Assembly (NCBI GenBank): GCA_030649895.1
Contig: JAUSEX010000031.1
Location: 2,620 to 66,619, forward strand
Origin: Candidatus Omnitrophota bacterium
GTDB lineage: Bacteria; Omnitrophota; Gorgyraeia; Gorgyraeales; Gorgyraeaceae
Direction: 5' to 3'
DNA length: 64,000 bases
Positions 22,867-63,688 of this stretch are shown here, one piece after another. The notes beneath the pieces are model-generated. The model ran no database searches. It saw only the letters and a list, made by a program, of their open reading frames with translations, and had not been told where the DNA came from. Each line of letters starts with the position of its first letter. Position 1 is the first letter of the stretch. Both the position numbers and the translations under genes were made by a program.

Positions 22867-22889
22867 CGCTAAGAGGATAATCGGTAGTA

Positions 22890-41511: not shown

Positions 41512-41543
41512 TATCGCGGAACTTATACGGAAGAGATGAATGT

Positions 41544-41963
41544 ATGAAAAATAATATTGTTCGAGCGAGGCCCGAAGAGCAGAGTCGAGAACTGCGGAAA
41601 TTCGGGTTTAATATAGGTTTAGGTTTGAATATACTCGGATGCATAATGTTTTACAGGCGCAGGGAACATTTTATATGGCTTGCTGCTATCGGGTCCGCTG
41701 CCCTGGTTTCAGCTGTTTTATATCCGAAGGCCTTAAAGCCGCTAAAGAAGTTTTTAGACAAGCTGATTTTTATTATTGGCTGGCTCATGAGCGCGATAAG
41801 CATGTCGATAGTTTTTTATCTAATATTCACGCCAATAGCAATCTTGCTTAGAATTATTGGAAAAGACCTGCTTAATGAAAAAATGGATAAAAAAGCCGCT
41901 TCTTATTGGATCAAGAGAAAGGCAAGTATTTTTTCAGAAAAATCTTATGAACAGATGGGCTGA
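41544..41963 (+). CDS. small membrane protein, SxtJ-like (carbamoyltransferase-associated)
   Basis: Two TM helices. Gene order mirrors the sxtI-sxtJ arrangement; family assignment is from memory. An alternative TTG start at 41508 overlaps the upstream stop. Confidence 0.35.
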   Translation: MKNNIVRARPEEQSRELRKFGFNIGLGLNILGCIMFYRRREHFIWLAAIGSAALVSAVLYPKALKPLKKFLDKLIFIIGWLMSAISMSIVFYLIFTPIAILLRIIGKDLLNEKMDKKAASYWIKRKASIFSEKSYEQMG

Positions 41964-41977: not shown

Positions 41978-42760
41978 ATGAACTTAATAGTCAGATTTAA
42001 AAAAATAATAGCTGAAAGACAGATTATCAGGGGCATGGTAATAAAAAATTTAAAGAGCAAATATATCGGCTCTATATCAGGGATCTTGTGGGCTGTTATA
42101 AATCCTTTGTTGATTATGCTGGTGATCACCTTTGTTTTTAGCCAGATAATGAAGACAGATATAAAGCATTTTCCATTATTGGTGTTAAGCGCGCTTTTAC
42201 CTTGGAATTTTTTTAATAATTCTATAAATGAATCCGCAGCTTCGATCAGCAGCAATGTCGATGTGTTAAGGCAATTTGTGATGCTTAAAGAGACTATCCC
42301 TATAGCTACGGTAATAACTAATCTTATAACTTTTTTATTTGGTTTTATAATTGTCCTGCCGGTTTTTATTATGTTTAATACAGGCATTGTAAATTATCTT
42401 ATCTTGCTGCCTTTTGTAGTGGTGCTACATTTTATTTTTACATTAGGGATCTCCATGCTTCTTAGTATAATAAATGTTTATTTTAAAGACTTGCCTCAGT
42501 TATTGAATATTTTTTTAATGTTACTATTTTGGCTTACGCCTGTATTTTATTCCATAGATATGATACCTCAAAAATACCACTGGCTTATTATTGCCAATCC
42601 GAGCGCATGTTATATTATTATTTACAGGGCGCTATTATATCAGGGTTTTAGCGGCGGCATATCTATATGGTTACTTGCGATTGGATTTGCTTTGATCAGC
42701 ATAATAAGCGGGTATTTTTTATTTATGAAAAAAGAATCGGAAATCTTGAAATACGCGTAG
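41978..42760 (+). CDS. wzm: ABC-2 type polysaccharide exporter permease (Wzm/TagG-like)
   Basis: 260 aa, six TM helices, ABC-2 family pattern. Immediately upstream of the ATPase. Confidence 0.8.
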   Translation: MNLIVRFKKIIAERQIIRGMVIKNLKSKYIGSISGILWAVINPLLIMLVITFVFSQIMKTDIKHFPLLVLSALLPWNFFNNSINESAASISSNVDVLRQFVMLKETIPIATVITNLITFLFGFIIVLPVFIMFNTGIVNYLILLPFVVVLHFIFTLGISMLLSIINVYFKDLPQLLNIFLMLLFWLTPVFYSIDMIPQKYHWLIIANPSACYIIIYRALLYQGFSGGISIWLLAIGFALISIISGYFLFMKKESEILKYA

Positions 42761-42783
42761 ATAAAAACGATGGATTGAATATC

Positions 42784-45597
42784 ATGAGCATGATATCTTT
42801 AAAAGATGTTGGTTTAAAATATAAGGTAGAGTTTAAAGAAAACGGCAGGATTACAACCGAGGATTTTTTGGCGCTTAAGGATATAAATATAGAGATAGAA
42901 AAAGGGGAAATCGTAGGGATCATAGGTGAAAATGGGGCTGGGAAAACCACGTTACTTAAAATAATAGCCAGGATGCTGGCGCCTGATAAGGGTACAGTTG
43001 ATGTAAATGGCAAAGTCTCTATGCTTATGGAAATAGGGTCTGGTTTTCACAGGGAGCTTACAGGCAGAGAGAATATATATACTATTTCTTCATTATTTGG
43101 CTTTTCAAAAGCGGAGATAGAGGCGAAATATGGTGATATAGTGAAGTTTGCAGCTATAGGCAGGTTTATAAATGCGCCGGTAAAGATTTATTCTCAAGGC
43201 ATGTATATGCGCCTGGCTTTTGCTATAGCGATACATGTGAACCCCGATATCTTGCTGGTGGATGATATATTTGCGGTCGGAGATGTTTATGCGCAGCGTA
43301 AATGTATCAATAAAATGTTTGAACTTAAAGAGCAGGGCAAGACTATTATTTTTGTTAACCAGGATATAGAAATACTAAAAAGATTCTGCACAAAGGGTAT
43401 ATTCTTAAGGGAAGGCAGCGTTGTTAAGGAAGGACCTATAGATAAAATATGCGATTACTATATGGAATCAGTGGGTGAAAAAAAAGGAATTGCTATTTTG
43501 GAAAAAGGTTTATTAGGCGTAGTTTTTAATAATGGCAGACTTATTCTAAGGTGGAAGAACAACGCTATTACATGTGGTTTTGGCGGATATACTATGGTTT
43601 TAACTTCAGGCCGTCAATATCTGTCAAATACTGCTGACTGGGAAGTCCAAAAGTCTAAGACAGGCGATGAAATCATAGCCATAGGTAAATGGCCTGATAC
43701 CCCGCTTATTCAATGCTGGAAAATAGTTTTCTTAAGTGAGAGAGAATTTTCATGGGAAATAACGATGCAAATGTTTGAAAATATTGCTATAGAGAAATTT
43801 TCTGCAGATATTATATTTATAGAGGGATATAAAAAGTGGTTTACTTTGGACAGTGAAACTAGTTTCCCGGAGGCTTTTGTTCACGATGCAGAATGGGAAT
43901 ACAATCTAGTCAGTGATTCTGCCAATAAGCTAATCGGCTTAAAAGGCAATAATCAAATATCAGGCTTTTTACCCGTGGTAATTTTAGACAGGTCTAATGA
44001 TAATATGGAAATAAAATGTGAAGTTTGTAATACAGGCGCCGATATAGGAGGCAGGGCAGTCCGATATCAGTCTCTTTGTCAGAAGCCGGGATTTGATTAT
44101 ATCCAGGATAAATACAGGTGTTTCCTTAGCACGGTAAGAATATTTGAATCTGAAGAAGGCGAGGGTTTAAAAAATTATATTAGTTGTACAAAACAAATAA
44201 TAAGTGAATCCTACATTATACGCAAAGGCTTAATAAGCCTTTTTTGCAAGGATCATAAGGTTGAAATTTATTATCGAGATAAATTACTTACGAGCGGAAT
44301 AGGTTTAAATGTGAGATTTAAATGCCAAGATAAAAATTACAGCCCTCTTGATGGGCAATGGGTTATGCACAAAAAAAATAATGAAGAAATAGCAATAACT
44401 ATTTCTTGGGGCGGGAAATCGCCACTTATTCAAACATGGAAGCTGAAATTGCAGGATGATAATGTTGTAGCATGGGAAATAGAGATGGAGATTAATGAAA
44501 AGACAGTGATAAGAAATAAGGAAGTAGAGCTGACACTTAATGAAGAATATGAGAAATGGATAACTGAGAATGAAAGAGGAGATTTTAAAAAAGCAGAGAA
44601 ACAAGGCAGCACAGTGCTTTTAAATAAATATATAAATGAACATATCGGCGTAGAGGGCATATCTAAAGTGGATGGGTTAGTTTTGCCTGGTGTAATATTT
44701 AATTATAAAGACGCGGCCCCCAAGGTTTCTTACATTTCTAAAATAAAAGAAGGGATAATGGCTACAAAATTACGGTATACGGAAATAGACTGTAAGGATA
44801 ATTTTTATATTCCATCAGGAAGGTATGAATATTTTAAAGGCGAGATAAAAGTGATAGCTGATCAAGAAAAAAGCCAGGATTTGATAAATAAAAAATCGGC
44901 TATTGGTAAGAAGGAATCATTAAACAGAATAGAACTTGGCAGCGTGTCGTTAGTTTTTGATAACGGAAGAGGCAGGATTTTTTGGAACGGTACAGAATTG
45001 ACAAAAGGATTAGGGCTGTACGCGTCTATTTTTTTTAAAGACGTATGGCATGATTCCTCTCAGGCTTTTTGGGAGGTTAAAAAGTTAGACCAAAAAAGAT
45101 TATCGGCTGTTGGTTATTGGCCTTGGCTGCCACTGATACAGACTTGGAAGATTTGTTTAGAGGATGAAAATACTGTTGTGTGGGATATAAAAAAAGAAAT
45201 TTGGGATGATGTTATTTTAAAAAGAGAACAGGTAAATCTTATGCTTTCGGATAACTATAAGGCATGGTCTGCTCATAAACGAATTCATGGAAAGTTTCCC
45301 AGTACATTTAGCAAGCATAGTGGTATTTTTTGGGATAGACTGTGGTGTGGGGATACTACCTCTCCTATTAGAGTTGAAAAGCAGAGGATTGGAAATAGGA
45401 TTTTAGGTGGGCAGCTTTTACCAGCTGTTGCTCTTGATTGTTCAATAGATTGTCCTGCCCGCTATTTCATTATTGAAAATACGGATGATTTATTTGAAGC
45501 CCGGGTTCTACAGTGTGAATTTGATTCGAATCAGAAATGCGGCGTTAATAAAGATAGAGATAAATATTTTGAAGGGCGAATCAAGGTAAATATTTAA
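42784..45597 (+). CDS. wzt: ABC transporter ATP-binding protein (Wzt/TagH-like) with ~690-aa C-terminal extension made of three novel bipartite modules
   Basis: Start placed at ATG 42784 (MSMISLKDVGL) after the permease stop. Walker A GENGAGKTT, ABC signature YSQGMYMRLAFA, Walker B ILLVDDIFAVGD. The C-terminal repeats start near 43510, 44230 and 44940. Confidence 0.85.
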   Translation: MSMISLKDVGLKYKVEFKENGRITTEDFLALKDINIEIEKGEIVGIIGENGAGKTTLLKIIARMLAPDKGTVDVNGKVSMLMEIGSGFHRELTGRENIYTISSLFGFSKAEIEAKYGDIVKFAAIGRFINAPVKIYSQGMYMRLAFAIAIHVNPDILLVDDIFAVGDVYAQRKCINKMFELKEQGKTIIFVNQDIEILKRFCTKGIFLREGSVVKEGPIDKICDYYMESVGEKKGIAILEKGLLGVVFNNGRLILRWKNNAITCGFGGYTMVLTSGRQYLSNTADWEVQKSKTGDEIIAIGKWPDTPLIQCWKIVFLSEREFSWEITMQMFENIAIEKFSADIIFIEGYKKWFTLDSETSFPEAFVHDAEWEYNLVSDSANKLIGLKGNNQISGFLPVVILDRSNDNMEIKCEVCNTGADIGGRAVRYQSLCQKPGFDYIQDKYRCFLSTVRIFESEEGEGLKNYISCTKQIISESYIIRKGLISLFCKDHKVEIYYRDKLLTSGIGLNVRFKCQDKNYSPLDGQWVMHKKNNEEIAITISWGGKSPLIQTWKLKLQDDNVVAWEIEMEINEKTVIRNKEVELTLNEEYEKWITENERGDFKKAEKQGSTVLLNKYINEHIGVEGISKVDGLVLPGVIFNYKDAAPKVSYISKIKEGIMATKLRYTEIDCKDNFYIPSGRYEYFKGEIKVIADQEKSQDLINKKSAIGKKESLNRIELGSVSLVFDNGRGRIFWNGTELTKGLGLYASIFFKDVWHDSSQAFWEVKKLDQKRLSAVGYWPWLPLIQTWKICLEDENTVVWDIKKEIWDDVILKREQVNLMLSDNYKAWSAHKRIHGKFPSTFSKHSGIFWDRLWCGDTTSPIRVEKQRIGNRILGGQLLPAVALDCSIDCPARYFIIENTDDLFEARVLQCEFDSNQKCGVNKDRDKYFEGRIKVNI

Positions 45598-45621
45598 GAT
45601 TTATTTTATTAGATAGATAAA

Positions 45622-46656
45622 ATGGACATTAGCACGCAAAATATCAATGCAAATTTTAAAAGAAACGGATCAAATTCTATTTTTCCGAATTATTGCTGTT
45701 TTGTAATTACGCTTAAGTGTATAATGAAATGTAAAATGTGTCACATTTGGAGAGATAGTGGAAACATCTTAAACGAACTGACAATTCAAGAATGGAAAGA
45801 TGTTGTAAATTCTCTCAAGGGTTTTTTGGATACGAAATATGATATTATATTATCCGGCGGAGAGCCGCTTTTAAAGAAAGATATACTAGGTCTGGTAAGT
45901 TATATTGCAAAATCAGGGTACAGGGCATCTCTTGAAACAAACTCTTATCTTGTTGATGAAGAACTGGCCAGGGCAATCCAGGATTCAGGGTTGTGGAGAA
46001 TTTGTATTTCATTGGATAGCTTGGCTGAGGATACGCATGATTCATTAAGAGGAAGAAAAGGTTCGTATGGAAGGGTAATGAGAGGGATTGAATATTTAAA
46101 TAAGTTTTGTCCATCGGTCGGTATAAATATACAAACTACTATTATGGAGCAAAATTTAGATGAGCTTGCTAAGCTTGCTGAATGGGTAGCTAGTGATGAA
46201 CGATTAGATTATGTTTATTTCCAGGCAATAGTCCGTCCTTTTGGCACGCCTATGGATGAAAATTGGTTTAAAGGCGATCATTATGGGTTTTTATGGCCTA
46301 GCCATACAGATAAAGTAAATCTGGCTATAGAAGAGCTGATAAGAATTAAAGAAAATAATCCTAAAATTGCCAATACAGTTGCTCAGTTTAAGGCGTATAA
46401 GGCATATTTTAAAGACCCGGTTAACTTCGGTAATAACATAAAATGCACGATAGGTAACCGCGATATTAATATAAATCCATGCGGCGATGCATACCTTTGT
46501 TTTTCAAAAGATTCCATAGGCAATATAAAAAATAGAAGCATAGAAGAAATATGGTATTCAGAAAAGGCTGACAAGGTAAGAAATGAGATCATTGGCTGTA
46601 AAAAACATTGCCATTTTTTACTCAATTGTTCTTTTGAAAAGGGAGACTATTTTTAG
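45622..46656 (+). CDS. radical SAM protein with C-terminal Cys-rich (SPASM/twitch-like) domain, paralog 1 of 8
   Basis: 344 aa. YCCFVITLKCIMKCKMCHIW (CxxxCxxC), SGGEPLL glycine motif, C-terminal C-x12-C-x5-C...C-x3-C-x5-C (IGCKKHCHFLLNC). Confidence 0.8.
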   Translation: MDISTQNINANFKRNGSNSIFPNYCCFVITLKCIMKCKMCHIWRDSGNILNELTIQEWKDVVNSLKGFLDTKYDIILSGGEPLLKKDILGLVSYIAKSGYRASLETNSYLVDEELARAIQDSGLWRICISLDSLAEDTHDSLRGRKGSYGRVMRGIEYLNKFCPSVGINIQTTIMEQNLDELAKLAEWVASDERLDYVYFQAIVRPFGTPMDENWFKGDHYGFLWPSHTDKVNLAIEELIRIKENNPKIANTVAQFKAYKAYFKDPVNFGNNIKCTIGNRDININPCGDAYLCFSKDSIGNIKNRSIEEIWYSEKADKVRNEIIGCKKHCHFLLNCSFEKGDYF

Positions 46657-46679
46657 TAGATTTTTATCTAAAAATTATT

Positions 46680-47696
46680 ATGCAAGATAAGCCATTTAAT
46701 TTTTTAAAATCTCAAAGCAGCCTTTTAGATATACGAAAACCGGCATTTTGCTGTATAGGTATTTCTACAGGGTGCATTTTGAAATGCAAGATGTGTTCAG
46801 TGTGGAAAACCAAATATGTTGCTATGCCACAAGAACCTACTATGGATGAATGGTTTCGTTTTATCGAGCTTGCTGCCGGCTTAACGGAAAATTCTATCGA
46901 GATAAACGTTTCCGGAGGAGAGCCTTTATTAGATGAAAGAAATTTAGCGTTAGTTAAATTTAGCGCCAAAAAAGGACTTTCAACTTCTATGCCTACCAAC
47001 GGTTTTCTCATAGACAAAGAGATGGCTTATAAAATAGCAGATAGCGGACTAAGCGCGATAGGCATATCTTTGGATGGTATCAAAAAAGATACGCATGATT
47101 TTTTAAGAGGCGTAGAGGGATGCCATGACAAAGCAATGCAGGCGATTGACTATCTTGATAGATGCTGCGGAAATATAGGAATAGGAATTTTGACAACTAT
47201 ATCAGAGAAGAATATCGATGAAATTATTGAGCTAACCAGGTGGGCTAATGAAGACAATAGAATCGAAACTATTATTTTTCAGGCGGTAACTCAGCCATTT
47301 AATACTCCTTTTGACGATGAATGGCATGATAAAAGCGAATATAGTTTTCTCTGGCCGAAAGACATCAGAAAGACCCATGTCTTATTAGACGAGATAATAA
47401 AACTAAAAAAAATGGCGTATAAGATATCCAACACAGTTTCTCAATTGGAAACTTTTAAGAAGTATTTTGAAAACCCCTTGGGATTTATTAAAAAAGATGC
47501 GTGTAATGTGGATTTTTATATGAATATAAATCAATTTGGAGATGTATATATGTGTCCAAGAAAAAAAGCTGTAGGGAATATAAGAAAATGCACTCCAAAA
47601 GATATGTGGTATTCAGAAGGCGCAAATCAAATGAGAGAAGAAATAAAAAGCTGCAGAGTAAATTGTCATCATGTATTAAATTGTTGTTATGAATGA
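46680..47696 (+). CDS. radical SAM/SPASM-like protein, paralog 2
   Basis: 338 aa. FCCIGISTGCILKCKMCSVW, SGGEPLL, KSCRVNCHHVLNCCYE. Confidence 0.8.
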   Translation: MQDKPFNFLKSQSSLLDIRKPAFCCIGISTGCILKCKMCSVWKTKYVAMPQEPTMDEWFRFIELAAGLTENSIEINVSGGEPLLDERNLALVKFSAKKGLSTSMPTNGFLIDKEMAYKIADSGLSAIGISLDGIKKDTHDFLRGVEGCHDKAMQAIDYLDRCCGNIGIGILTTISEKNIDEIIELTRWANEDNRIETIIFQAVTQPFNTPFDDEWHDKSEYSFLWPKDIRKTHVLLDEIIKLKKMAYKISNTVSQLETFKKYFENPLGFIKKDACNVDFYMNINQFGDVYMCPRKKAVGNIRKCTPKDMWYSEGANQMREEIKSCRVNCHHVLNCCYE

Positions 47697-50600
47697 GGAT
47701 GGTGGTTATCGTATGAACAGCTGGACAGCAAAATTTAAGAATAAAATATATGCGTTCGAAAAGATATTCAAGCAAAAAAGGACAAGCTTTCGCACGATAT
47801 ATAATGGTACCTTAAGGCTCTTTCTGGATGAAAATAATAGGCTTAGGATATATTATAAAGACAATGAGCTTACAAAAGTCTCCGGTTTGAATACTAACAT
47901 ATTATCCGAAGCTAATTGGCATAGTTCGCTTGACTCTATAGTTAATAATATAGAAAAACTATCTTCTGAAGAGATGATTATCCATTTGAAGCATAGTCAG
48001 CTTCCTCTTGTGCAAGCTTGGCATCTGAAATGCAACTCAGAAGATACGCTTAGCTGGGAAGTAAATATGCATATAAAAAAACCGTTACGTATAGATTGTA
48101 TGAAAGCATCCTTGTTCTTATCCAAAGCTTATGAGGATTGGATAATTCCTGCCAAACAAGATACATTTCCTCCTTTTTCTGATTTTCAATGGAAAAGTAT
48201 GAATTCTTTTGAAGATAAAGCCGGCTTCATAGGCCTTGCTTCTTCCTTAGAAGAATTTCCTGGCATGTCTCTTAAAAGTTCTGATAACTCAAAAGCTTCA
48301 TTAATAATCCAAAATACCGATATAAATCTTTCTTCCCGTGTTCTTGAAATTCAATGCGAAGATAAAAAAGAATTCTACCAGCCCGGCACCTACTCTTTTC
48401 TTAAGGCCACAATACAGTTTTATCCTGATAAGAATGTTTTAAAAAATATTCTCAAAGAAATAAAGGAGCAGGAACAAAAGAAGCAGGACGAGCTAATGCT
48501 TCAAGAAGAAGAGCGCCTCAAAAAAGCCAAAGAGGAAGACCATAAGCTCCGCACCCTTCAAAGCGGCCCCTTTAGGCTCCATATAGACCAGCATAACAGG
48601 TTTCACCTCTATTATAAAGAACAAGAGCTTACCAAAGGAGTTGGTATTAATATGGGAATACTCTCTGAAGGTAATTGGTATGCTGCCTGTGATTCCAGAA
48701 TTGAAATAAAAAGGCCGTCTTCTAATAAGATGCTTGTACAGTTTATTTACAATAAGCTTCCTGTTATTTGCTCATGGCAGATAGATTTTAAGCCGGAAGG
48801 CGTGTTTACCTGGGTCATTGATATATCTTTTAAAGAATCTCTACGCATAGATCGAAGCAATGTTTCTTTATTCTTATCCAAATCTTACGATAATTGGATT
48901 GCTCCTCCTGAAGAAGGGAGTTTCAGCTCTTCATTCGGCCCAGGGTGGCAAAGGATGAATACTCACAAAGACAATGCTGAATTTACCGGATTATATTCTT
49001 CTTCAGAAGAATTTCCGGATGTGATTTGTAAAAGCTCAAAGGATTCAAAAGCTTCATTAATAATCCAAAATACCGATATAAATCTTTCTTCCCGTGTTCT
49101 TGAAATTCAATGCGAAGATAAAAAAGAATTCTACCAGCCCGGCACCTACCCTTTTCTTAAGGCCACAATACAGTTTTATCCTGATAAGAATGTTTTAAAA
49201 AATATTCTCAAAGAAATAAAGGAGCAGGAACGAAAGAAGCAGGAACAGGAACAAAAACGGCTTCAAGAATTAGAAAGGCTTAGACAGGAAGAAGAAAGGC
49301 TTAAGCAGGAACAGGAACAGAAGAAACAGGAAGAAAATCACAAACAGAATGAATTTAAAAAAATATACATGTTATTAAAAGAAGACGAAAAAGATTTTCC
49401 ATTAATCGAGGATAATGATGTGTATGTATATGGAGACTGCGAAGACTTGCATGACAAAATTGCTTCTCAACAAGGAAATTTTAATAATCTCATTTCAAGA
49501 ATAGAGACAGCCAAAAAAAAAGGTTTAAAGGTTAATATAAAAATAGGCGTATCGAAATTTAATTTTTTTAAGCTAGACACTATTATTCAATTTTATTCTA
49601 GATTGCTAAATAGCCGCATAGACCTGCGTTCTGTTTCTTTGAATTTTTTACCCGCAAAGAATATTTTTTATTATTTCGCCGAGTATATAAAACAATTAAA
49701 TATGCAGCTCGAATCGAGTAATATAGGGCTTTTCTTAAGAGACAAAGAGTTGCCCGGCCTTCTTTGGGCTATTTCTAGCCAAGCAGATCAATATAATGAG
49801 AAAGATTTATTGCGATTATTGGGAGTTATAACGGAGCACGCCTTTATTGGACCTCAAACTATCGTTCTAGATATTAATCATAGCTGTAATACTAATTGTA
49901 TACATTGTTGGATCCATACGCCAAAGCGTAAGGCCTCTCTACAGCTTAGTAATTTAAAGATGGACATCTCTTTATATAAAAATATTATTGATGATGCGGC
50001 AAATCTTTTATGTGACGAGATTATCATACAGGGAGATGGCGAGCCTCTTCTAGACGATAGATTTTTAGAAATGACCTGTTATGCGCGGGATAAGGGATTA
50101 AAAGTTTTATTTTTTACGAATGGCATACTTTTGGATAAAGAAAAAGCCGGTAGAATAATAGACTTGGAAGTAAACGAGATATTCTGCAGCCTTCCTGCAG
50201 GAACAGATAAGACTTATGCCTTGGTTAATCCGGGGCATTCAAAGGATACCTTTCATCATATAGCAGCGAATTTAAAAAATTTAAGCTTGATGAGAAAAAA
50301 ATCAGGAAAAAACAAACCATTATTACAAATGTCCCATGTTATCCATAACCTGAATTATCATGAGTTAGAAGAAATGGCTGAATTGGACGCTTATATAGGA
50401 GCGGATAAAACAAGATTTTATCTTGCCCGCTTAGATGAGAATATAGATTTTTTAAAATTAAGCCCTAGACATATTAAGATAATAAAAGAATCCCTAAAAA
50501 AGACAGCGCCCTATTTAAAAAGCAAGCACGTAGAATTACAAGACAATATATATTTTCAGCTAGAAAACTATAACTCTACAACAGGTTATTGGTCTAAAAA

Positions 50601-50910: not shown

Positions 50911-50922
50911 AGGATTTTAGCT

Positions 50923-53115: not shown

Positions 53116-53119
53116 TGAT

Positions 53120-54379: not shown

Positions 54380-54537
54380 TTTACAAAAGTTTGTTAAACA
54401 TTGCAAGGCAGGCGGGTTATTTTATGCTATTAGTAGAGGCGTTAAATATGTAACTTGGCGCAATAAATGTAAAAAAATGGGTATAGACTGTGGAAAATTC
54501 AGCAGAGAAAGATAGCTGTATTAAAAAAAGGTGATTT

Positions 54538-55587: not shown

Positions 55588-55610
55588 ATTATATACGAAA
55601 GGAATTTTAA

Positions 55611-56669
55611 ATGAAAAGCAATGTTAAGAATAGCCTTACAAGGCAAGATGTGCCTGCGGTATTAAAACCAGGTTTTTGCTGTATAGGTATCGTTGATACG
55701 TGTATGTTAAAATGCCAGATGTGCCACAAATGGCAGGATGATCCTGGCACCATTGGTTTTTCTCAGCCTACTACTGACGAGTGGAAAATGTTTATCAGGC
55801 AGTTAAGAGACTTGGTGGATGAAGGGTTTGAGATTGATTTTGGAGGCGGGGAAGCTTTGATGAGAAATGATGTTTTGGATCTGGTATCTTATGCCAAGAG
55901 TTTAGGGTTTAGAAACGCCATAGCTTCAAATGGCTACCTTATTAATGAAGACATGGCAAAAAGGATAGTGGATTCCGGGTTAGACAGCATAGTTTTATCA
56001 TTAGACAGCTTAAAACCCGAGGTCCATGATCGAATGCGCGGTGTAAAAGGCGTTACAGAAAGGGTATTTAAGGCTATTGAATTCTTAAGAAAATATTCAA
56101 AAGATATACACATAGGGATATGCACGATAATAATGGAACAGAGCCTTGGCGGCATTATAGACTTGGCTGAATGGGTAAATACTAATAGGGACAAGATGAA
56201 CTCGATTCTTTTTATGGCTCCCATGCAGCAAAATAATACGCCTTTTGATCCTGGATGGTTCAAGAAAACAGAATATAATTTTATATGGCCAAAAGACAAT
56301 AAAAAAACCCAGAATGTCCTTGATGAGTTAATAAGACGCAGAAAATTGGGACATTGGATAGGCGATTCAGTGGTGCAATTAGAGGCTTTTAAAGCATATT
56401 TTGAAAACCCTGCCAGGTTTGTGAAAAAAAGCCCTTGCAATCTGGACAGGGCTATACATGCGAGTTCCATTGGTGATGTATTCTTTTGTTATCGTTACGG
56501 CCTTTTAGGCAATATAAAAAATGGGGATGATATAAGGGAAATATGGCATTCAGGATCAGCCGACAGGGTCAGGACTGATATTAAAAAATGCCAGCATAAT
56601 TGCCACTTTTTGCTTAACTGTTTTTTTGAAGGCGATTATCCCTTTACGGTAGGAGGAGAGGGGGGTTGA
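55611..56669 (+). CDS. radical SAM/SPASM-like protein, paralog 4
   Basis: 352 aa. FCCIGIVDTCMLKCQMCHKW, GGGEALM, KKCQHNCHFLLNCFF. Confidence 0.8.
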   Translation: MKSNVKNSLTRQDVPAVLKPGFCCIGIVDTCMLKCQMCHKWQDDPGTIGFSQPTTDEWKMFIRQLRDLVDEGFEIDFGGGEALMRNDVLDLVSYAKSLGFRNAIASNGYLINEDMAKRIVDSGLDSIVLSLDSLKPEVHDRMRGVKGVTERVFKAIEFLRKYSKDIHIGICTIIMEQSLGGIIDLAEWVNTNRDKMNSILFMAPMQQNNTPFDPGWFKKTEYNFIWPKDNKKTQNVLDELIRRRKLGHWIGDSVVQLEAFKAYFENPARFVKKSPCNLDRAIHASSIGDVFFCYRYGLLGNIKNGDDIREIWHSGSADRVRTDIKKCQHNCHFLLNCFFEGDYPFTVGGEGG

Positions 56670-56670
56670 A

Positions 56671-57717
56671 ATGCCTGATTCTTGCGAAGTAAGATCGGAG
56701 AAAGAAACTTTAAATGAAAAAAATGTTCTAAAACCCAGTTTTTGCTGTGTAGCTGCTACGGATTATTGTATGTTACGCTGCAAGATGTGCAATAAGTGGC
56801 ATGAACCTGCCCCAAAGAAAGAGGAGTTGCCTTCTTTGGATGAGTGGAAAAATTTTATAGCCGGTTTTAGAGAATTGGTAGACGAAGGTTTTGAAATGGA
56901 TTTTGGGGGAGGCGAGGCGTTATCGATGCCAGGCATATTGGATTTAGTAAAATTTGCAAAACTAAAAGGGTTTAGGACAACTATGGCTTCAAATGGGTAT
57001 CTTATTGATATGGATATGGCTAAGAGAATCGCAGATGCAGGATTAGATGCCGTAAGCTTGTCTTTAGATAGCTATAACCCTGAGGTTCACGATAAAATGA
57101 GGGGAGTTAAAGGCGTTCATCAGCAGGTAATGAATGCTATAGATAATTTGACAAAATATTCTCCGCAAACAAGAAAAGGCCTTTGCTGTATTATCATGAA
57201 CGAAAATTTGGATGAAATCCTCAATCTTGTTGATTGGGCAAATGGCAATAAAAAAGTAGACTGGATATATTTTATGGTAGTAGTCCAGCCTAATTATAGC
57301 GGGCCGTTGACAGATAACTGGGTGGATGAGTATCAATATCTCTGGCCTAAAGATAAATCAAAGGTGCTTGCTGTTCTAGACGAGCTTATAATGCGAAAGA
57401 AAAATGGCTCCAAGGTAAGCAATAGGGTAGAGCATCTCAGGGCATACAAGGCGTATTTTAACAATCCGCAGAAATTAGTAAATAAGGCCAGATGCATTGT
57501 TGGCGGCAAGGCAATAAGCGTTAATGCTTATGGCTTTGTCCAACTCTGTCTTTTTAAGGATTTTATAGGAAATATAAGGCAGAATGATATCAGGGAATTA
57601 TGGCGTTCTCAGGATGCAAATTTAATAAGAAAAAAAGTAGATGAGTGCAAGACAAATTGTCATTTGCTTCTTAATTGTTGTTATATAGAAGATGAACCGT
57701 CTCTCTATTCGGATTAA
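56671..57717 (+). CDS. radical SAM/SPASM-like protein, paralog 5
   Basis: 348 aa. FCCVAATDYCMLRCKMCNKW, GGGEALS, DECKTNCHLLLNCCY. Separated from paralog 4 by 1 nt. Confidence 0.8.
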   Translation: MPDSCEVRSEKETLNEKNVLKPSFCCVAATDYCMLRCKMCNKWHEPAPKKEELPSLDEWKNFIAGFRELVDEGFEMDFGGGEALSMPGILDLVKFAKLKGFRTTMASNGYLIDMDMAKRIADAGLDAVSLSLDSYNPEVHDKMRGVKGVHQQVMNAIDNLTKYSPQTRKGLCCIIMNENLDEILNLVDWANGNKKVDWIYFMVVVQPNYSGPLTDNWVDEYQYLWPKDKSKVLAVLDELIMRKKNGSKVSNRVEHLRAYKAYFNNPQKLVNKARCIVGGKAISVNAYGFVQLCLFKDFIGNIRQNDIRELWRSQDANLIRKKVDECKTNCHLLLNCCYIEDEPSLYSD

Positions 57718-57731
57718 ATATCCTTGACCAG

Positions 57732-58739
57732 ATGAACCAGGACTTTCTCGTTCGCAAGCCTAAATACTGCTGCTGGGTTCTTAATTATCGCTGTATGTTA
57801 AGATGCAAGATGTGCTACATCTGGAATATCAAAGACGATAAAAGCCAGGAAACTACCATGGAGGAGAAAAAGAAATTTGTCAAATCCTTGCGCGGCATGG
57901 TAGGCCCTGATTTTGAATTTCACTTATCAGGCGGGGAGCCTTTAATGACAGAGGGGGTTTTGGATTTAGTTAGTTTTATTGCTGATGAAGGATATAAGAC
58001 AAATATGGTTACAAATGGCTTTCTTATCGATGAAAAAATGGCAGAAGATGTTATGAATTCTAAACTGGGGAGCGTTACTATTTCATTAGATGGAATAAAT
58101 CCAGATACCCATGATTATATCCGAGGCGTAAATGGCAGCTATTCCAGGATAATGGAAGCTATCGAATATCTGGATAGGTCTAGAAAAGATAAAAGCCCGA
58201 AAATCTCCATGTTGACTGTTATAATGGAACGCAATTTAGATGAGCTGCTTGAGCTTGCAGAATGGGTTCAACAGGATAAGAGGTTAGAGATGATAAGCTT
58301 TCAGGCAATAAACCAGCCTTTTTGCGAAGATATGGATAAAGAATGGTTCAGAGAAAATAAAAATAGTTTTCTATGGCCTCAGGATAAAGCAAAAACCAGC
58401 TTTATTATGGAGAGGCTTAGAGAATTAAGGTTAAAAGGGAATAAAATAGGGAATCACCATAATCATTTTTTGCATTTCAGGGAATATTTTAAGGATCCGA
58501 ACACATTTTTAAAGAAGATAAAATGCAATCTTGGAGATTATGAGTTTCATGTTGATCCGTACGGGAAGATGTTTTTCTGCTCTTTTACAGATTCGATGGG
58601 AAATATAAAAAAAGATGATATAAATAAAATCTGGTATTCGCCGGAAACAAAAAAAATAAGGCAGGATGTGTATAATTGCCGCAGAAACTGCCATATAATG
58701 ATTAATTGTTTTTATGAAGATGAAGCCTGCATTACGTAA
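57732..58739 (+). CDS. radical SAM/SPASM-like protein, paralog 6
   Basis: 335 aa. YCCWVLNYRCMLRCKMCYIW, SGGEPLM, YNCRRNCHIMINCFY. Confidence 0.8.
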   Translation: MNQDFLVRKPKYCCWVLNYRCMLRCKMCYIWNIKDDKSQETTMEEKKKFVKSLRGMVGPDFEFHLSGGEPLMTEGVLDLVSFIADEGYKTNMVTNGFLIDEKMAEDVMNSKLGSVTISLDGINPDTHDYIRGVNGSYSRIMEAIEYLDRSRKDKSPKISMLTVIMERNLDELLELAEWVQQDKRLEMISFQAINQPFCEDMDKEWFRENKNSFLWPQDKAKTSFIMERLRELRLKGNKIGNHHNHFLHFREYFKDPNTFLKKIKCNLGDYEFHVDPYGKMFFCSFTDSMGNIKKDDINKIWYSPETKKIRQDVYNCRRNCHIMINCFYEDEACIT

Positions 58740-59982
58740 AACATTTTTTATAACAGTGCCAGCCGTATTGATTTTTCTCATCGTGCTGGAGTTATGCTTG
58801 AGGATGTGCGGGTATTTATATATACAGCGTCACAATCATGAAGCGCATACCAAAACAACGGAATTAAGTAAGGATAAACTCAGGATTCTTTGCTTGGGAG
58901 ATTCTTTTACTTTTGGCGTGGGGTCTAGTCCTGAAAACAATTATCCAAAGCAGTTAGAAAGAATATTGCAGGAAAATATCTCTGAGAAAATAAGCGTTAT
59001 TAATGGGGGCCGCCTTGCCAATACTTCATCGTTACTCTTAAAAAATTTACAAGAAAATATTAATAAATATTCTCCGTCTATCATAGTTGTAATGATAGGA
59101 ATGAATAATAGTTGGAACTTAGAAGGCAGCAGTTATTTTTTGTTAAATAGCAGCATAGGTTTACTGGAAAGACTGGAAAGAATGTCAAGCTCTTTCCGTA
59201 TATACAAATTATTAAAGATAGGATGGGTTAATTTTAAATATAAAATAGATGGAAATAAGAAAATAGCTTCTGCTAATAATTCGATTCGGAAAATAAAACC
59301 TGAATCATTAGAGTTATCCGCTATTGGCAATGAATTATTCTTAAAAGGGGAGTATATCCTGGCTATAGAGAAGTTGCAGGAGTCATTAAAAATAGATAAC
59401 AACAACTACGATGCGTATTTATTTTTAGCAGGTATGCGAAATACTCAGAAAGAATTTCAATTAGCTGAAAAAGAGATATGGCAAGCTATTAATTCGATAG
59501 ATGAATGGGACGATCATCTTATCTGCACAGTGCTTCTAGCCATCAATAGGCTTGGCGATAAGAAAGAAGCAGAATTAGTAAAACTGAAATCGTATTTTAA
59601 AAGTAAATATTATGGGAATAAAAAGAGCAGGCTACTTAAGATAATAGAGGCAGATTTAGATTTTTCAAAAAAAGAAACCATATCTAAAGTGCTGGAATAT
59701 GATTTGGAACGGATAGTTAGGTTGGCTAGGGAGAACAGAGTAACGCTTATTTTGCAGACTTATCCAAGGAGCATACTTGAGAATATTACTATAGAAACAA
59801 TAAGCCGAAAATATAATAGTTGCTTAGCAAACAACGAAATAATATTTAAAGAAAAGGCTCGAAGCGATTTTTTTGTTGCCGATGGCCATTGTAATGAGAA
59901 AGGATATGAATTAATTGCGGAAAATGTGTATGATATTTTGGTTAAAGAAGAAATGTTACCTAGAAAAAGAACAGGAGAATAG
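58714..59982 (+). CDS. membrane-anchored SGNH/GDSL-family hydrolase with TPR-like C-terminal region
   Basis: 422 aa. N-terminal TM, then GDSFTFGVG (GDS-x block I) and later SGNH blocks. Overlaps paralog 6 by 26 nt. Confidence 0.6.
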   Translation: MKMKPALRKTFFITVPAVLIFLIVLELCLRMCGYLYIQRHNHEAHTKTTELSKDKLRILCLGDSFTFGVGSSPENNYPKQLERILQENISEKISVINGGRLANTSSLLLKNLQENINKYSPSIIVVMIGMNNSWNLEGSSYFLLNSSIGLLERLERMSSSFRIYKLLKIGWVNFKYKIDGNKKIASANNSIRKIKPESLELSAIGNELFLKGEYILAIEKLQESLKIDNNNYDAYLFLAGMRNTQKEFQLAEKEIWQAINSIDEWDDHLICTVLLAINRLGDKKEAELVKLKSYFKSKYYGNKKSRLLKIIEADLDFSKKETISKVLEYDLERIVRLARENRVTLILQTYPRSILENITIETISRKYNSCLANNEIIFKEKARSDFFVADGHCNEKGYELIAENVYDILVKEEMLPRKRTGE

Positions 59983-59986
59983 AATA

Positions 59987-61045
59987 ATGGCAGATAAAAT
60001 AAAAGAGAATTTAAGCAAGACAATTGTTTTACCCGCATTTTGCCTTTTGGTTGTTTCTAAAATATGCAATTTTAGATGTAAGATGTGCAATATGTGGAAG
60101 AATAAAGAACGCGGTATAGACAGGAAAGAACTTACCATGGAAGAGATGAAAGGTTTTGTAGATGATTTGAAGAATGTTACTACAGAGCCTATCTTTATTC
60201 ATCTTATAGGAGGAGAGGCATTATTAAGAAAGGATTTAACGGAGATCGTATCTTATATAAAGAAAAGCGGCTTTAATAGCTCTATTACTACGAATGGATA
60301 TTATATTGATGATGAGATGGCGAAAAAGTTAGTTGAATCAGGGCTTAAAGGAATATTTCTTTCTCTGGACGGTTTTGAGGAAGATACCCATGATTATCTG
60401 CGAGGCGTTAAAGGCAGCTATAGGCGCGTGATGGATGCTATTGAATTATTGGATAAAAATAGGGGAGACGATAAGTTGAATAGGTTAAGTATCGGCATAA
60501 CTATGACGCTTATGGAGAAGAATTTGGACGAGGTGTTGGATTTGGCTGAATGGGCAAATAACAATGAAAAGATAAACGATTTATTTATTAATGCATGTTT
60601 GCAGCCATTTGACGCCGATGATCATGAAAGAGAATGGTTTAAAAATAGAAAGAATAGCGATGTCTGGCCGCAGGATATAGAAAAAGTTTGCGCTATCTTA
60701 GAAAAGTTGGCTTTGTTAAAGGAAAAGGGTTATAAGATTTGCAATCCTCCGAAACAACTGAGGCTGGTCAAGGAGTATTTTAAAAACCCCTATAGATTTA
60801 TACATGACAGTAAAATAAAATGCCCAAGGGGAGACTTGGCTCCGGAAATAAACGCTTATGGAGATATAAATATGTGTTTTTGTATGCCGCCTGTTGCAAA
60901 CATAAGAGAGAAGAAGTTTTCAGAGGTATGGTATTCCAGGGAAATGGAGGACGTAAGAAATGAAATAAATAAATGTAAGAAAGATTGCGATATAGCTGTA
61001 AATTGCTTCTATAAAATTGAAAATATAACCGATTATGTTAAATAA
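59987..61045 (+). CDS. radical SAM/SPASM-like protein, paralog 7
   Basis: Start moved to ATG 59987 (MADKIKENL) with an AGGAG RBS 9 nt upstream. The track start 59915 overlaps the SGNH gene. AFCLLVVSKICNFRCKMCNMW, IGGEALL, NKCKKDCDIAVNCFY. Confidence 0.8.
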   Translation: MADKIKENLSKTIVLPAFCLLVVSKICNFRCKMCNMWKNKERGIDRKELTMEEMKGFVDDLKNVTTEPIFIHLIGGEALLRKDLTEIVSYIKKSGFNSSITTNGYYIDDEMAKKLVESGLKGIFLSLDGFEEDTHDYLRGVKGSYRRVMDAIELLDKNRGDDKLNRLSIGITMTLMEKNLDEVLDLAEWANNNEKINDLFINACLQPFDADDHEREWFKNRKNSDVWPQDIEKVCAILEKLALLKEKGYKICNPPKQLRLVKEYFKNPYRFIHDSKIKCPRGDLAPEINAYGDINMCFCMPPVANIREKKFSEVWYSREMEDVRNEINKCKKDCDIAVNCFYKIENITDYVK

Positions 61046-62012
61046 GAGCCCAAAAACCTGTCTTCTGACTGTAACAAATAATTGTGTTTTGCGCTGCAAA
61101 ATGTGCCATCTATGGCAGCTTAATACCGCAGAAAATGAAGTTAATATAGATGACTGCAAAAGATTAATAGATTCTTTTAAGGGGTTTGGGCCAGAACCTG
61201 TAGAGGTGCATATTATTGGAGGAGAATCCTTGATTAAAAAAGGAGTATTAGACTTGATCTCGCATATAAGCAACAAAGGATCTAGGACTGTTATGACTTC
61301 ATGCGCATATACTATAGATGAAACAATGGCAAAGGCAATTGCCGGATCTGGTTTAAATATGTTAAATATATCCATAGATAGCTTAAACCCATTAGTTCAT
61401 AATTTTTTAAGAGGGCGAGATGATTCTTTTCAGCGCGCAATGAGCGCAATTGATTATCTGAGTAAGTATAAAGATAATAGACTGAGATTAGGTATCAACA
61501 CTGTTATTTCAGCAAAGAATTTAGATGATATAGTTGGATTAAGCGAGTGGACACTAGGTAATAAAAATCTGGATTCTATTTATTTTATGGCAGTAATGAG
61601 GCCTTTTGGCTCTAACCTGGACTGGCATTGGTTTAAAAAAGAGGAATATAAGGATCTCTGGCCTTTGGATTATTCTAAAGTTGAACTAGTATTAGATAAA
61701 CTCATTACTTTAAAAAACAAAGGCTCTAAGATAGGGAATCCTGCAAGTCAATTAGAGGTCTTTAAGACATATTTTAAAAATCCTTTCGATTTTATAAAAG
61801 TCAATAGGTGCAATGTTTCTGAGCAAGCCCTTAATATAAACGCATTAGGCGATGTTTATCTTTGTTTTTTTATGGAAAAATTGGGCAATATCAAAGAACA
61901 TAATGTGGCGCAGCTTTGGAATTCCGATAAGGCGCAAAAGATCCGCGCCCAGATGCGCTCCTGCAGGAATAATTGCGAATTAGTAGTGAATTGTTATTAT
62001 GAGGAAAAATAA
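61035..62012 (+). CDS. radical SAM/SPASM-like protein, paralog 8
   Basis: 325 aa. KTCLLTVTNNCVLRCKMCHLW, IGGESLI, RSCRNNCELVVNCYY. 11-nt overlap with paralog 7. Confidence 0.8.
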   Translation: MLNKSPKTCLLTVTNNCVLRCKMCHLWQLNTAENEVNIDDCKRLIDSFKGFGPEPVEVHIIGGESLIKKGVLDLISHISNKGSRTVMTSCAYTIDETMAKAIAGSGLNMLNISIDSLNPLVHNFLRGRDDSFQRAMSAIDYLSKYKDNRLRLGINTVISAKNLDDIVGLSEWTLGNKNLDSIYFMAVMRPFGSNLDWHWFKKEEYKDLWPLDYSKVELVLDKLITLKNKGSKIGNPASQLEVFKTYFKNPFDFIKVNRCNVSEQALNINALGDVYLCFFMEKLGNIKEHNVAQLWNSDKAQKIRAQMRSCRNNCELVVNCYYEEK

Positions 62013-63624
62013 TCGTAGAGATACTAATTTTATAGAGTCTAAAATGAGAAGAAGGAATTATTTATTTTTAATATTAATAATATTAAGTTTTCATGTCTTC
62101 CTAAACTATCAAGTATTGAAGAAAAGTAATATTATAAGAATGGATGATGAAGGAGGGACTATAATAGCAGGCTTGAATTGTTACAATATAATATTCTTGG
62201 ATCATAGCATTAAGCTTGTTAATAAATTAGGTTTTATTTTAGGCCTGCATGGTCAATGCCATCCTCGTTTTGTTGAACTCGCAGAAGCGCTTTCTTGGAA
62301 GGCGCTTAATTTATTTAAAATTTTAGACATAACTTCAATGATTTTAGTAGTTAATGCTATATTTTTTATTATTTTATTAGGCAGTGTATATGGAATTGGT
62401 TCAATAGTTTATAATAGAAATGTAGGCATATTATCTGCAGCGCTGGTTTCAATGTTTCCTTTGGTATTTGGACATTCAAGATTAGCTATGCGAGATTTTC
62501 CTTTGATGTGCATGGTTTCTCTGGGTTTTTATCTGCTTCTGAAGGCCGGTAAATTTAGTTCTAGTTTGTATAGCGTATTATCTGGCGTAGTGTTTGGTTT
62601 AGCGCAATTGACCAAAGAAACTGCTTTTATTTTTTTTCTTACCCCATTAATTTATTATTTTACTGGATCTTACTCGTTGGACAATAAAAAGAAGGTGTTG
62701 CGAAATTTTATTGTTACTTTGGCTTGTTTTTTAATTTTAACCGGAGTTGTATATTTCAGATTAGAAAATCTGCACGCGTTTAAAATATATTTTGGGAAAA
62801 CTTGTTATATCAGGAATTATCCCAATTTTTTTTATTATTTAAAAAATTTTATAGAAATTACAGGGCCATTTATTTTGATTATATCGTTGCCTTTGTTTGT
62901 TCAATACTTGGTTAACATTAAAAGAAGAGAGAAAATTCTATTTGTTTGGTTTATTATCCCGATTATATTGTTTAGCATTACCCCAAATAAAGCTATCAGA
63001 TTTCTTTTCCCCATATTGCCGGCTTTTGCCCTAATCGTAAGCAGCGAAATAGCCAATATTAATTTATCTAAAGAATTTAAAAAGGTATTTTATATTATGC
63101 TGATTTCAATCTCAATACTTCAATATGCGTTTTTCAATGCTGGAATTTTAGATACAAAATTTAAAAACCCGTATTTTGAAGCAGGCATCTTGTCTGTTAG
63201 AAAAGATAAATATTTGCCTGAATATATGAGATTATTGGATGTTTTTAAAAAAGAAGCAAAAAATAATAATGTCTCGGGAAATAAGAATGTAGTTTTTTTA
63301 TTCAATATTCGGGAGATCTATTGGCCGTTTTGGCTGGATACTTGGGTATATAAAATGCCTTTCAATGTATCTAATTCACTGCTGGTAGATGAGGTAGATG
63401 TGATTAATACCTACCATGTTGATTGGGATAAAGAAATTTTGAAAGCGGATTATATTGTTAATAAAACAGGCTTTAAAGAACGGCAAGATTATCGGAATCA
63501 TATTTTAGATGGGTTGGAAAAAGGTTTTATTAAATATAAAGATAGATTTGAATTAATCGCTGACATTAAGCTATTGTTTGATAACTCTGCGGTATACGTG
63601 TATAAAAAAGTTAGTCACAATTGA
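62002..63624 (+). CDS. GT-C membrane glycosyltransferase (GT39/ArnT/PMT_2-like)
   Basis: 541 aa, ~12 TM helices. MFPLVFGHSRLAMRDFPLMCMVSLGFYLL loop region resembles ArnT/PMT-family mannosyltransferases. Confidence 0.6.
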   Translation, partial: RKNNRRDTNFIESKMRRRNYLFLILIILSFHVFLNYQVLKKSNIIRMDDEGGTIIAGLNCYNIIFLDHSIKLVNKLGFILGLHGQCHPRFVELAEALSWKALNLFKILDITSMILVVNAIFFIILLGSVYGIGSIVYNRNVGILSAALVSMFPLVFGHSRLAMRDFPLMCMVSLGFYLLLKAGKFSSSLYSVLSGVVFGLAQLTKETAFIFFLTPLIYYFTGSYSLDNKKKVLRNFIVTLACFLILTGVVYFRLENLHAFKIYFGKTCYIRNYPNFFYYLKNFIEITGPFILIISLPLFVQYLVNIKRREKILFVWFIIPIILFSITPNKAIRFLFPILPAFALIVSSEIANINLSKEFKKVFYIMLISISILQYAFFNAGILDTKFKNPYFEAGILSVRKDKYLPEYMRLLDVFKKEAKNNNVSGNKNVVFLFNIREIYWPFWLDTWVYKMPFNVSNSLLVDEVDVINTYHVDWDKEILKADYIVNKTGFKERQDYRNHILDGLEKGFIKYKDRFELIADIKLLFDNSAVYVYKKVSHN

Positions 63625-63688
63625 GTAATTTCAGATTCTGTGACATTAAAGCTTTCAATTAAGATGCCTGGTTGAGATCGGAACCAAA

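Follow-up and report, generated by a model that had tools for sequence, protein, structure and literature searches.

The 64,000-nucleotide (nt) stretch of a Candidatus Omnitrophota genome analysed here (positions 2,620 to 66,619 of contig JAUSEX010000031.1, assembly GCA_030649895.1; hereafter the window) contains an operon in which genes for building a glycan and exporting it through an ATP-binding cassette (ABC) transporter are joined by eleven genes for radical S-adenosylmethionine (rSAM) enzymes, half of the operon's genes, and in which the exporter ATPase, Wzt, carries three copies of a module of ~210 amino acids (aa) that recurs in two of the rSAM enzymes. We think it fairly probable that this operon encodes an Omnitrophota-specific variant of the ABC-dependent pathway, in which a lipid-linked, furanose-containing glycan is tailored by radical chemistry and export is coupled to that tailoring through the shared module, acting as a reader domain. 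ABC-dependent glycan pathways are known as such; what appears to be new here is the reader domain, along with a number of rSAM enzymes that has no precedent. Searches of the literature on rSAM enzymes in Omnitrophota, with Wzt or with O-antigen gave no description of an rSAM-Wzm/Wzt system, which agrees with a preliminary description of this stretch, made from the sequence alone, that had called the system a candidate for an undescribed one. The source genome (1.68 Mb, 97.7% complete) is from groundwater, and the sources of the nearest proteins are named as Omnitrophota. A search of sequencing runs found the window sequence in groundwater metagenomes, with no RNA run listed among the runs containing it.

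Gene content of the operon

The 22 genes of the operon occupy ~27 kb of the window (36159-63624), all on the forward strand, with intergenic spacings of -68 to +24 nt (-4 to +24 nt in the neighbourhood of the GT4 gene, the initiating transferase and the exporter), and Pfam assigns families to them. This assemblage is far beyond chance, and its gene order recurs in other Omnitrophota families. The curated NCBIfam cut-offs are reached by none of the rSAM proteins, Wzm and Wzt, the WecA-like protein or the carbamoyltransferase. The preliminary description had placed the locus at 41978-63624. Pfam recovers all the gene families it named on the forward strand, including the interleaved SGNH hydrolase and GT39-like transferase, and the close packing that it reported holds, but the locus begins upstream, at 36159, and continues past the end of the window, and a conserved 49-aa open reading frame (ORF) at 54366-54515 had been overlooked. 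The genes and the module copies within them are the following:

36159-37325, + strand: GT4 glycosyltransferase (GT), first gene of the operon (PF00534/PF13439); it adjoins the WecA-like gene in related loci L001/L002 as well
37322-38314, + strand: WecA/MraY-family polyprenyl-phosphate sugar-phosphate transferase, the initiating enzyme (PF00953, 110.8 bits; multi-pass membrane protein by hydropathy)
38330-39655, + strand: FAD-dependent nucleotide-sugar pyranose/furanose mutase resembling UDP-galactopyranose mutase (UGM; 150 bits, E 1e-43 to solved eukaryote-type enzymes)
39664-41511, + strand: NodU/CmcH-type O-carbamoyltransferase (PF02543, 336.8 bits; PF16861, 232.7 bits)
41508-41963, + strand: SxtJ-like small membrane protein, partner of the carbamoyltransferase (PF19588, 36.9 bits; two hydrophobic segments)
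41978-42760, + strand: Wzm ABC-2 permease (PF01061, 50.4 bits; Aquifex aeolicus Wzm, 93 bits)
42784-45597, + strand: Wzt ATPase, a nucleotide-binding domain (NBD) followed by three modules (43531-44166, 44218-44862, 44893-45594); longest ORF from 42667
45622-46656, + strand: paralog r1, rSAM/SPASM-twitch (PF04055, PF13186; orthologue in L001, 100% support)
46680-47696, + strand: paralog r2, rSAM/SPASM-twitch (PF04055, PF13186; orthologue in L001, 100% support)
47689-50910, + strand: 1073-aa rSAM protein, with an N-terminal motif, two modules (47746-48417, 48493-49173), an E/K/Q-rich linker, a ~160-aa domain and an rSAM/SPASM core from ~49846
50923-53115, + strand: 730-aa rSAM enzyme of the B12-domain type, HpnJ/AprD4-like (PF04055, 82 bits), with a C-terminal module (52420-53112)
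53120-54379, + strand: 419-aa rSAM/SPASM protein (conserved core; 26% identical to the 1073-aa protein over residues 717-1026 of the latter)
54366-54515, + strand: conserved basic 49-aa ORF between the 419-aa gene, which it overlaps by 14 nt, and r3
54538-55587, + strand: paralog r3, rSAM/SPASM-twitch (100%-supported clade with G093 and G187 proteins)
55611-56669, + strand: paralog r4, rSAM/SPASM-twitch (100%-supported clade with G093 and G187 proteins)
56671-57717, + strand: paralog r5, rSAM/SPASM-twitch (100%-supported clade with G093 and G187 proteins)
57732-58739, + strand: paralog r6, rSAM/SPASM-twitch (100%-supported clade with G093 and G187 proteins)
58714-59982, + strand: membrane-anchored SGNH/GDSL hydrolase with TPR repeats (PF13472, 48.1 bits; TPR_11)
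59915-61045, + strand: ORF of paralog r7, likely start 59987, rSAM/SPASM-twitch (Pfam, CX3CX2C, tree)
61035-62012, + strand: paralog r8, rSAM/SPASM-twitch (Pfam, CX3CX2C, tree)
61999-63624, + strand: GT-C fold (PMT_2/GT39-like) membrane glycosyltransferase (PF13231, 43.3 bits; PF03901, 32.4 bits)

By sequence comparison, the exporter is a genuine member of the Wzm/Wzt class, and the A. aeolicus O-antigen transporter is among its best solved relatives. The Wzt NBD matches the A. aeolicus Wzt with 213 bits, TarH with 189 and TagH with 162, as well as mycobacterial RfbE, and its best NCBIfam models are TagH and galactan Wzt, both below their equivalog cut-offs, while for Wzm there are further matches to TarG and to the galactan permease of mycobacteria; a search of the genome with Wzm as query found no second copy. 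The longest Wzt ORF would yield 976 aa and overlap Wzm by 94 nt, but since homologues align only from residue 40, translation probably starts at the ATG at 42784, giving 937 aa. The usual Wzt_C domain, PF14524, has no match in this protein at E <= 0.01. Upstream, the initiating transferase has WecA as its top NCBIfam model (64 bits, below cut-off), and the UGM-like protein retains the GH, YPFQxN, FM(K)PYN, FYR and GSWxY motifs, with one substrate-binding Arg replaced by Lys; the bacterial UGM model TIGR00031 scores only 35 bits on it. The enzyme may supply a furanose sugar, probably galactofuranose, and its gene adjoins Wzm in three Omnitrophota families. Glycan-building genes are syntenic with the core of the locus in L001/L002 and in genomes G143 and G133; the carbamoyltransferase is missing from L001 and is thus regarded as accessory. 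Taken together, the exporter matches, the UGM-like protein and the synteny point to an ABC-transporter-dependent glycan pathway and suggest a furanose sugar in its product. The SGNH protein has a lone hydrophobic segment at residues 11-29, an N-terminal anchor, and genome G093 has one to three copies of such a hydrolase.

All eleven rSAM proteins have intact frames and the CX3CX2C motif. Twelve had been claimed in the preliminary description; the eleven within the locus stand, while the twelfth, at 19904, belongs to a different glyco-cluster. The eight ~340-aa paralogs, there described as one tandem run, are in fact arranged in three blocks of two, four and two, with pairwise identities of 34-52%. 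Their CX3CX2C motif begins at residue 17-51, PF13186 matches with 23-43 bits, and five C-terminal cysteines are invariant or nearly so across 50 family members, against the seven or eight that a full SPASM domain uses for two auxiliary clusters. In a maximum-likelihood tree of 35 family members, every one of r1-r8 forms a clade with proteins from other genomes, each time at 100% support. Orthologues from different families are 61-80% identical, those of r3-r6 in G093 included, and G187 has r3-r8 in the same order. As orthologues are thus more similar than paralogs, the duplications must be old and every copy retained; this speaks for separate steps that are not redundant, and against pseudogenes. 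The possibility that these genes are pseudogenes, which had been raised at the outset, was accordingly rejected: no frame is broken, the catalytic motifs persist and identity to orthologues is 61-82%.

An AlphaFold2 (AF2) model of a paralog (mean predicted local distance difference test score, pLDDT, 89.5) begins directly with the rSAM barrel, the core starting at residue ~20-30, and Pfam finds no PF05402 (PqqD/RRE) domain in any gene of the locus and no other N-terminal domain in the paralogs. The model superposes best on BlsE (TM 0.68/0.71), a sugar-nucleoside decarboxylase of the same size, although BlsE, SkfB, SuiB, CteB, MoaA, DesII and anSME match about equally, so that the modelled fold does not separate peptide from sugar substrates. 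In size, and in lacking an N-terminal domain, the paralogs resemble small-molecule enzymes.

The three larger rSAM enzymes are likewise conserved. Orthologues of the 1073-aa protein have 1061-1095 aa in L001 and L003; its residues 500-720 match nothing in Pfam or NCBIfam, and an Atlas feature search, which we take as a lead only, hints at a partial rSAM-like domain in residues 555-722. The 419-aa enzyme has orthologues of 64-82% identity. PF04055 and PF13186, both expected from the preliminary description, are found among the enzymes, whereas the B12-binding domain PF02310 reaches 29.3 bits in the 730-aa enzyme, under the cut-off of 32.1. The HpnJ model TIGR03471 scores 266.6 bits on this enzyme (cut-off 577.6), and AprD4, its nearest solved relative, 96 bits; these two nearest named relatives both act on sugars, and AprD4 has a B12-binding domain but is not known to use cobalamin. 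A hopanoid role was excluded, the 97.7% complete genome having no squalene-hopene cyclase match. An anSME/sulfatase island, named earlier as one known pathway to which the locus might reduce, was rejected as well, as the operon has no sulfatase gene and the anSME models are not among the best 25 NCBIfam matches listed for any paralog.

A module shared by exporter and enzymes

The module is present six times in the genome, every copy within the locus: three in Wzt, two in the 1073-aa enzyme and one in the B12-type enzyme. The preliminary description had recognised it in the exporter ATPase and two of the rSAM enzymes, and BLASTP confirms the relationship, with E values of 1e-10 to 1e-27 when the C-terminal part of Wzt, the N-terminal part of the 1073-aa protein and the C-terminal part of the B12-type enzyme are compared. 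A third copy in the 1073-aa protein (49186-49848) was considered and dropped, as it does not align. No Pfam or NCBIfam family matches the module, but its fold can be placed by modelling: the AF2 model of the copy in the B12-type enzyme (39 sequences; pLDDT 89.9) is an all-beta supersandwich, for which Foldseek (probability 1.00) and VIA return galactose mutarotases, accessory domains of GH2, GH36 and GH97 enzymes and a galactosaminidase (GalN-ase) domain, with Z of 15-17 over ~205 of 231 residues and a root-mean-square deviation of 2.9-3.5 Å. Its neighbours in the ESM Atlas are GH123_N, GH31 and GH36N domains together with Omnitrophota ABC ATPases. Across the copies, W30, W85, W97, Y122 and W125 (model numbering) are invariant or nearly so, and these conserved aromatic residues hint that the module may bind sugar.

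A profile search of 1.84 billion representatives found 591 proteins with the module, in one to nine copies each, and every named carrier is from Omnitrophota. In seven of nine sampled carriers, the only Pfam partners are the Wzt NBD, an rSAM domain or a PMT_2 GT-C transferase, while the other two have no Pfam domain at threshold. Relatives of the operon's GT-C transferase bear two or three C-terminal modules (P0140, P0182, P0208 and a 772-aa protein of G093), and these fusions have eight to ten hydrophobic segments by a crude hydropathy count. In P0222 (three sequences), a Wzt NBD, two modules and a large rSAM enzyme are joined in a single chain. The case for a common substrate of enzymes and exporter is made most strongly by this Wzt-rSAM fusion and by the exclusive set of partners, which independently support the earlier proposal that exporter and enzymes act on, and export, the same polymer.

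Building on what is directly established, namely the gene content and its integrity, the paralogy and orthology of the enzymes, the fold and partners of the module, the class of the exporter and the conservation of the locus, we infer a scheme that extends to the substrate, the sidedness, every chemical step and sugar binding by the module. The WecA-like enzyme would start the glycan on polyprenyl phosphate at the cytoplasmic face, and the GT4 enzyme would extend it, with furanose, probably galactofuranose, supplied by the UGM-like mutase; in this strain, the carbamoyltransferase would decorate it. The rSAM battery would then alter the cytoplasmic intermediate by hydrogen abstraction, each enzyme performing its own step, for which epimerisation, oxidation, deoxygenation, ring contraction and the formation of C-C or C-methyl bonds are plausible. 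Two of these enzymes may grip the substrate through their galactose-mutarotase-like modules, and the three modules of Wzt may stand in for its usual carbohydrate-binding domain, tying export to the same glycan, possibly in its finished form; the O9a Wzt domain, which reads a terminal cap, offers a parallel for such coupling. In the periplasm, the anchored SGNH enzymes and the GT-C transferase could finally move the product to its acceptor. One could also speculate further, namely that a conserved dozen or so rSAM enzymes rebuild a surface glycoconjugate of Omnitrophota while the shared supersandwich reader hands the substrate along and licenses its export, but this fuller version we hold only tentatively, as a possibility worth keeping in mind. 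The rebuilt sugars could then be carbocyclic, cross-linked, deoxy or C-alkylated, none of which is known from bacterial envelopes, and, if true, glycan assembly lines would here follow an organising principle that is new.

Similar parts are found in several characterised systems. The Wzm/Wzt pathways of E. coli O9a, Klebsiella O12/Raoultella and A. aeolicus share the permease, a Wzt with a C-terminal extension, the WecA-type start and cytoplasmic assembly, but here the extension consists of three supersandwich modules instead of the PF14524 jelly-roll, the same module is also found on biosynthetic enzymes, half of the operon is rSAM genes, and there is no kinase or methyltransferase terminator. 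Mycobacterial galactan (Rv3781/Rv3783) and Klebsiella D-galactan I with glf come close in having a UGM-type mutase, a WecA-type start and Wzm/Wzt, and galactan exporter models give the best NCBIfam names for both exporter subunits, far under their cut-offs; the mutase here is, however, eukaryote-like, a GlfT-like GT2 polymerase is absent and the rSAM battery has no counterpart there. BtrN, AprD4, DesII, BlsE, GenK and HpnJ represent the same twitch/SPASM and B12-domain classes of rSAM enzyme, yet their pathways use one to three of them on a small molecule, against eleven or more in an export operon here, two of them with a substrate-binding-like module. To our knowledge, most known rSAM chemistry on sugars consists of isolated steps in the making of antibiotics and hopanoids, and an envelope-glycan operon that is half rSAM would, if true, widen the known chemistry of bacterial surfaces. 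With each enzyme kept as its own orthologue across families, the locus offers a dozen related but distinct catalysts for comparison, and the module offers a testable example, supported by the natural Wzt-rSAM fusions, of a single substrate-reading domain put to use in biosynthetic enzymes, an ABC exporter and a periplasmic transferase.

Substrate of the radical SAM enzymes

Several observations weigh against tailoring of a lipid-linked glycan. SPASM/twitch enzymes are best known for peptide substrates, and the peptide-modifying SkfB, SuiB and CteB, as well as anSME, score about as well as BlsE against the paralog model, while no NCBIfam model attains its cut-off for any rSAM protein of the locus. 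A galactose-mutarotase-like fold, here a modelled one, is by itself no proof of sugar binding, and the module may serve to dock proteins to one another instead. One soluble GT, the GT4 enzyme, is few for a polymer; a chain-terminating kinase/SAM-methyltransferase domain of the WbdD type is encoded by none of the genes in 36159-63624; and the 49-aa ORF sits amid the rSAM genes with no role that the scheme explains.

This small ORF recurs intact in ten other loci, at a length of 47-51 aa in nine and of 40 aa in L012; its position between a 419-type gene and r3 is kept in six loci, and L011 and L012 differ in the upstream neighbour. It matches no Pfam or NCBIfam family and is conserved end to end, including Cys, Trp, Tyr and Phe residues. 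Its first ~30 residues correspond to the N-terminus of module-bearing proteins in Omnitrophota families f23 and f6, and the 1073-aa enzyme opens with a similar motif. The free ORF is found in genomes where the B12-type enzyme has its module at the C-terminus, and in none where motif and module are N-terminal. We read its product as a putative detached helper or docking element; a predicted complex between the 49-aa product and the full B12-type enzyme (score 0.05, run without controls) is informative neither way.

One alternative is that the locus resembles those for peptides synthesised ribosomally and modified after translation (RiPPs), with the small ORF, the obvious candidate, encoding a precursor or scaffold, the rSAM/SPASM enzymes modifying it, the ABC-2 pump exporting it and the GTs decorating it or being bystanders. 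Like the locus, sactipeptide, ranthipeptide, SCIFF and streptide clusters combine rSAM enzymes that end in an Fe-S domain with a small conserved ORF and a nearby ABC-2 transporter, SPASM-type enzymes mostly mature peptides, and the recurrence of the small ORF in other loci, six times between the 419-type gene and r3, its 14-nt overlap with the 419-aa gene and its conserved Cys, Trp, Tyr and Phe would all suit a precursor, as would the presence of SkfB, SuiB, CteB and anSME among the top fold matches. We nevertheless find this highly improbable, as conservation extends over the entire peptide and leaves no variable core, enzymes of f23 and f6 have its motif fused to them and a similar motif opens the 1073-aa enzyme, the locus has neither a PqqD/RRE domain (the paralog core starting at residue ~20-30) nor a leader peptidase, the pump is of the Wzm/Wzt glycan class and not a peptide exporter, the module has a fold of the carbohydrate-enzyme kind, and the UGM, WecA-like, GT4 and GT-C genes are syntenic with the core across families. 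That the enzymes instead modify the lipid of a glycolipid, a polyprenyl, other isoprenoid or alkyl chain, in the manner of Tes, GrsA/B and hopanoid enzymes, with Wzm/Wzt as flippase, could be argued from the closeness of the B12-type enzyme to HpnJ of hopanoid side-chain synthesis, from weak matches of the paralogs to Tes (E 1e-11 to 1e-16) and to GDGT-MAS (rank 50 in the fold search), and from another rSAM array of the genome that adjoins polyprenyl synthase and UbiA genes. Yet it is the sugar of a glycolipid, not the lipid, on which HpnJ works, the genome, as noted, has no squalene-hopene cyclase, the Tes matches are weaker than those to many other families, the module resembles sugar-handling domains and the operon contains no lipid-synthesis gene, so that we consider lipid tailoring improbable.

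Sugar could also be the substrate at an earlier stage, the ~340-aa paralogs, like BlsE and DesII, using soluble nucleotide sugars and so yielding a set of rare donors, with the module-bearing enzymes alone touching the polymer. The paralogs have no module, and both their size and their fold agree with those of BlsE, MoaA and DesII, users of nucleotide-linked small molecules; eight or more donors would, however, call for matching GTs, of which the operon has one GT4 and one GT-C, nor does it contain a nucleotidyltransferase or dehydratase for nucleoside-diphosphate sugars, and the array is missing from f23 although the core is kept. We therefore regard such precursor supply as unlikely. An alternative that concerns the module only, and does not exclude glycan tailoring, is that the module is a docking unit that assembles the rSAM enzymes on the exporter into a metabolon and does not read the glycan. 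Its repetition, two to nine times per protein, would fit such a role, as would the Wzt-rSAM fusion, which implies that these proteins work side by side, and the dimerisation of known Wzt C-terminal domains. The module is also fused C-terminally to GT-C transferases, though, and by analogy with ArnT and PMT, in which the C-terminal domain lies on the periplasmic side, it would there be away from Wzt; given this and the conserved aromatics and fold neighbours, which fit sugar binding, we think docking the less plausible role, with perhaps a modest chance of being correct.

Distribution and genomic context

The order of module-bearing and rSAM genes, whose conservation in related genomes the preliminary description had left as a question, recurs in other Omnitrophota families. 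Families f1 and f12 share the order Wzm, Wzt, (paralogs), large enzyme, B12-type enzyme, 419-type enzyme, small ORF and paralog array, the array having four to twelve members and being accompanied by extra SGNH, B12-type and GT-C genes. Family f23 keeps UGM, Wzm and a Wzt with more modules, has no ~340-aa array and carries motif and module at the N-terminus of the B12-type enzyme instead of the C-terminus; here (L029/L035; G143:C2 ~204900-208750 and G133:C1 ~63800-67700), three 419-type domains are fused into a protein of ~1285-1300 aa. This comparison defines the conserved core as UGM, Wzm, Wzt with modules, the B12-type rSAM enzyme with its module and the 419-type rSAM enzyme, and since the core is kept without the array, the latter is a lineage-specific expansion. 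The module was found in 80 of the 401 genomes sampled from the phylum (52 of 282 genera), but in only one of four other genomes of the window's own genus, a patchiness that resembles that of a surface-antigen locus. The G+C content falls from ~0.41 upstream to 0.34-0.36 at ~42000, the start of Wzm, and stays low through the window end; taken with the uneven occurrence in the genus, this would suit a surface-antigen locus that varies and may have been exchanged. Omnitrophota, nanobacteria that have not been cultured, are thought to depend on other cells. A surface glycan that varies and is specific to the lineage would be a plausible player in attachment or in the evasion of phages and hosts.

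Within the 1073-aa gene, a direct repeat of 299 nt (48190-48488 and 48946-49244, + strand; 87% identical, 756 nt apart) spans the 3' ends of both modules, whose protein ends are nearly identical, suggesting a recent partial duplication or gene conversion.

Downstream of the GT-C gene, the operon seems to continue beyond the window:

63672-64000, + strand: start of the next gene (348 aa), with a weak alpha/beta-hydrolase signal
G000:C17:66200-73335 (L038), past the window end: in order, abhydrolase-like, GDSL, GDSL with TPR, 111-aa ORF, GT9, 340-aa rSAM/SPASM and TPR genes

In L038, the GT9 protein is of the heptosyltransferase family, the 340-aa rSAM/SPASM protein is more distant from the array, and the 111-aa ORF gave no matches.

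Elsewhere in the window, a separate envelope-glycan cluster (14165-24857, + strand) comprises two PMT_2 proteins with TPR, a GT2, a methyltransferase, a B12-type rSAM enzyme, a GT9 and a TPR protein. Its rSAM enzyme, encoded at 19904, had been presented as a paralog of the one in the operon; it is of the B12 type and HpnJ-like (397 bits, under cut-off), but the two are only 30% identical, and dnaG, rpoD and other housekeeping genes lie between them. The genome as a whole (G000) has 59 PF04055 matches in its 1.68 Mb, and it has about fifteen B12-type rSAM enzymes. A second rSAM array (C47:1-18000, L040) lies next to PMT_2, GT9 and a phosphodiesterase-methyltransferase fusion, tandem B12-type rSAM genes (C19:1-14000, L041) are found just downstream of polyprenyl synthase and UbiA prenyltransferase genes, and C11 and C14 are also among the contigs named for rSAM matches. 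With this number of rSAM proteins and these further arrays, radical chemistry on envelope components seems to be a habit of the lineage, of which the exporter operon is the clearest case.

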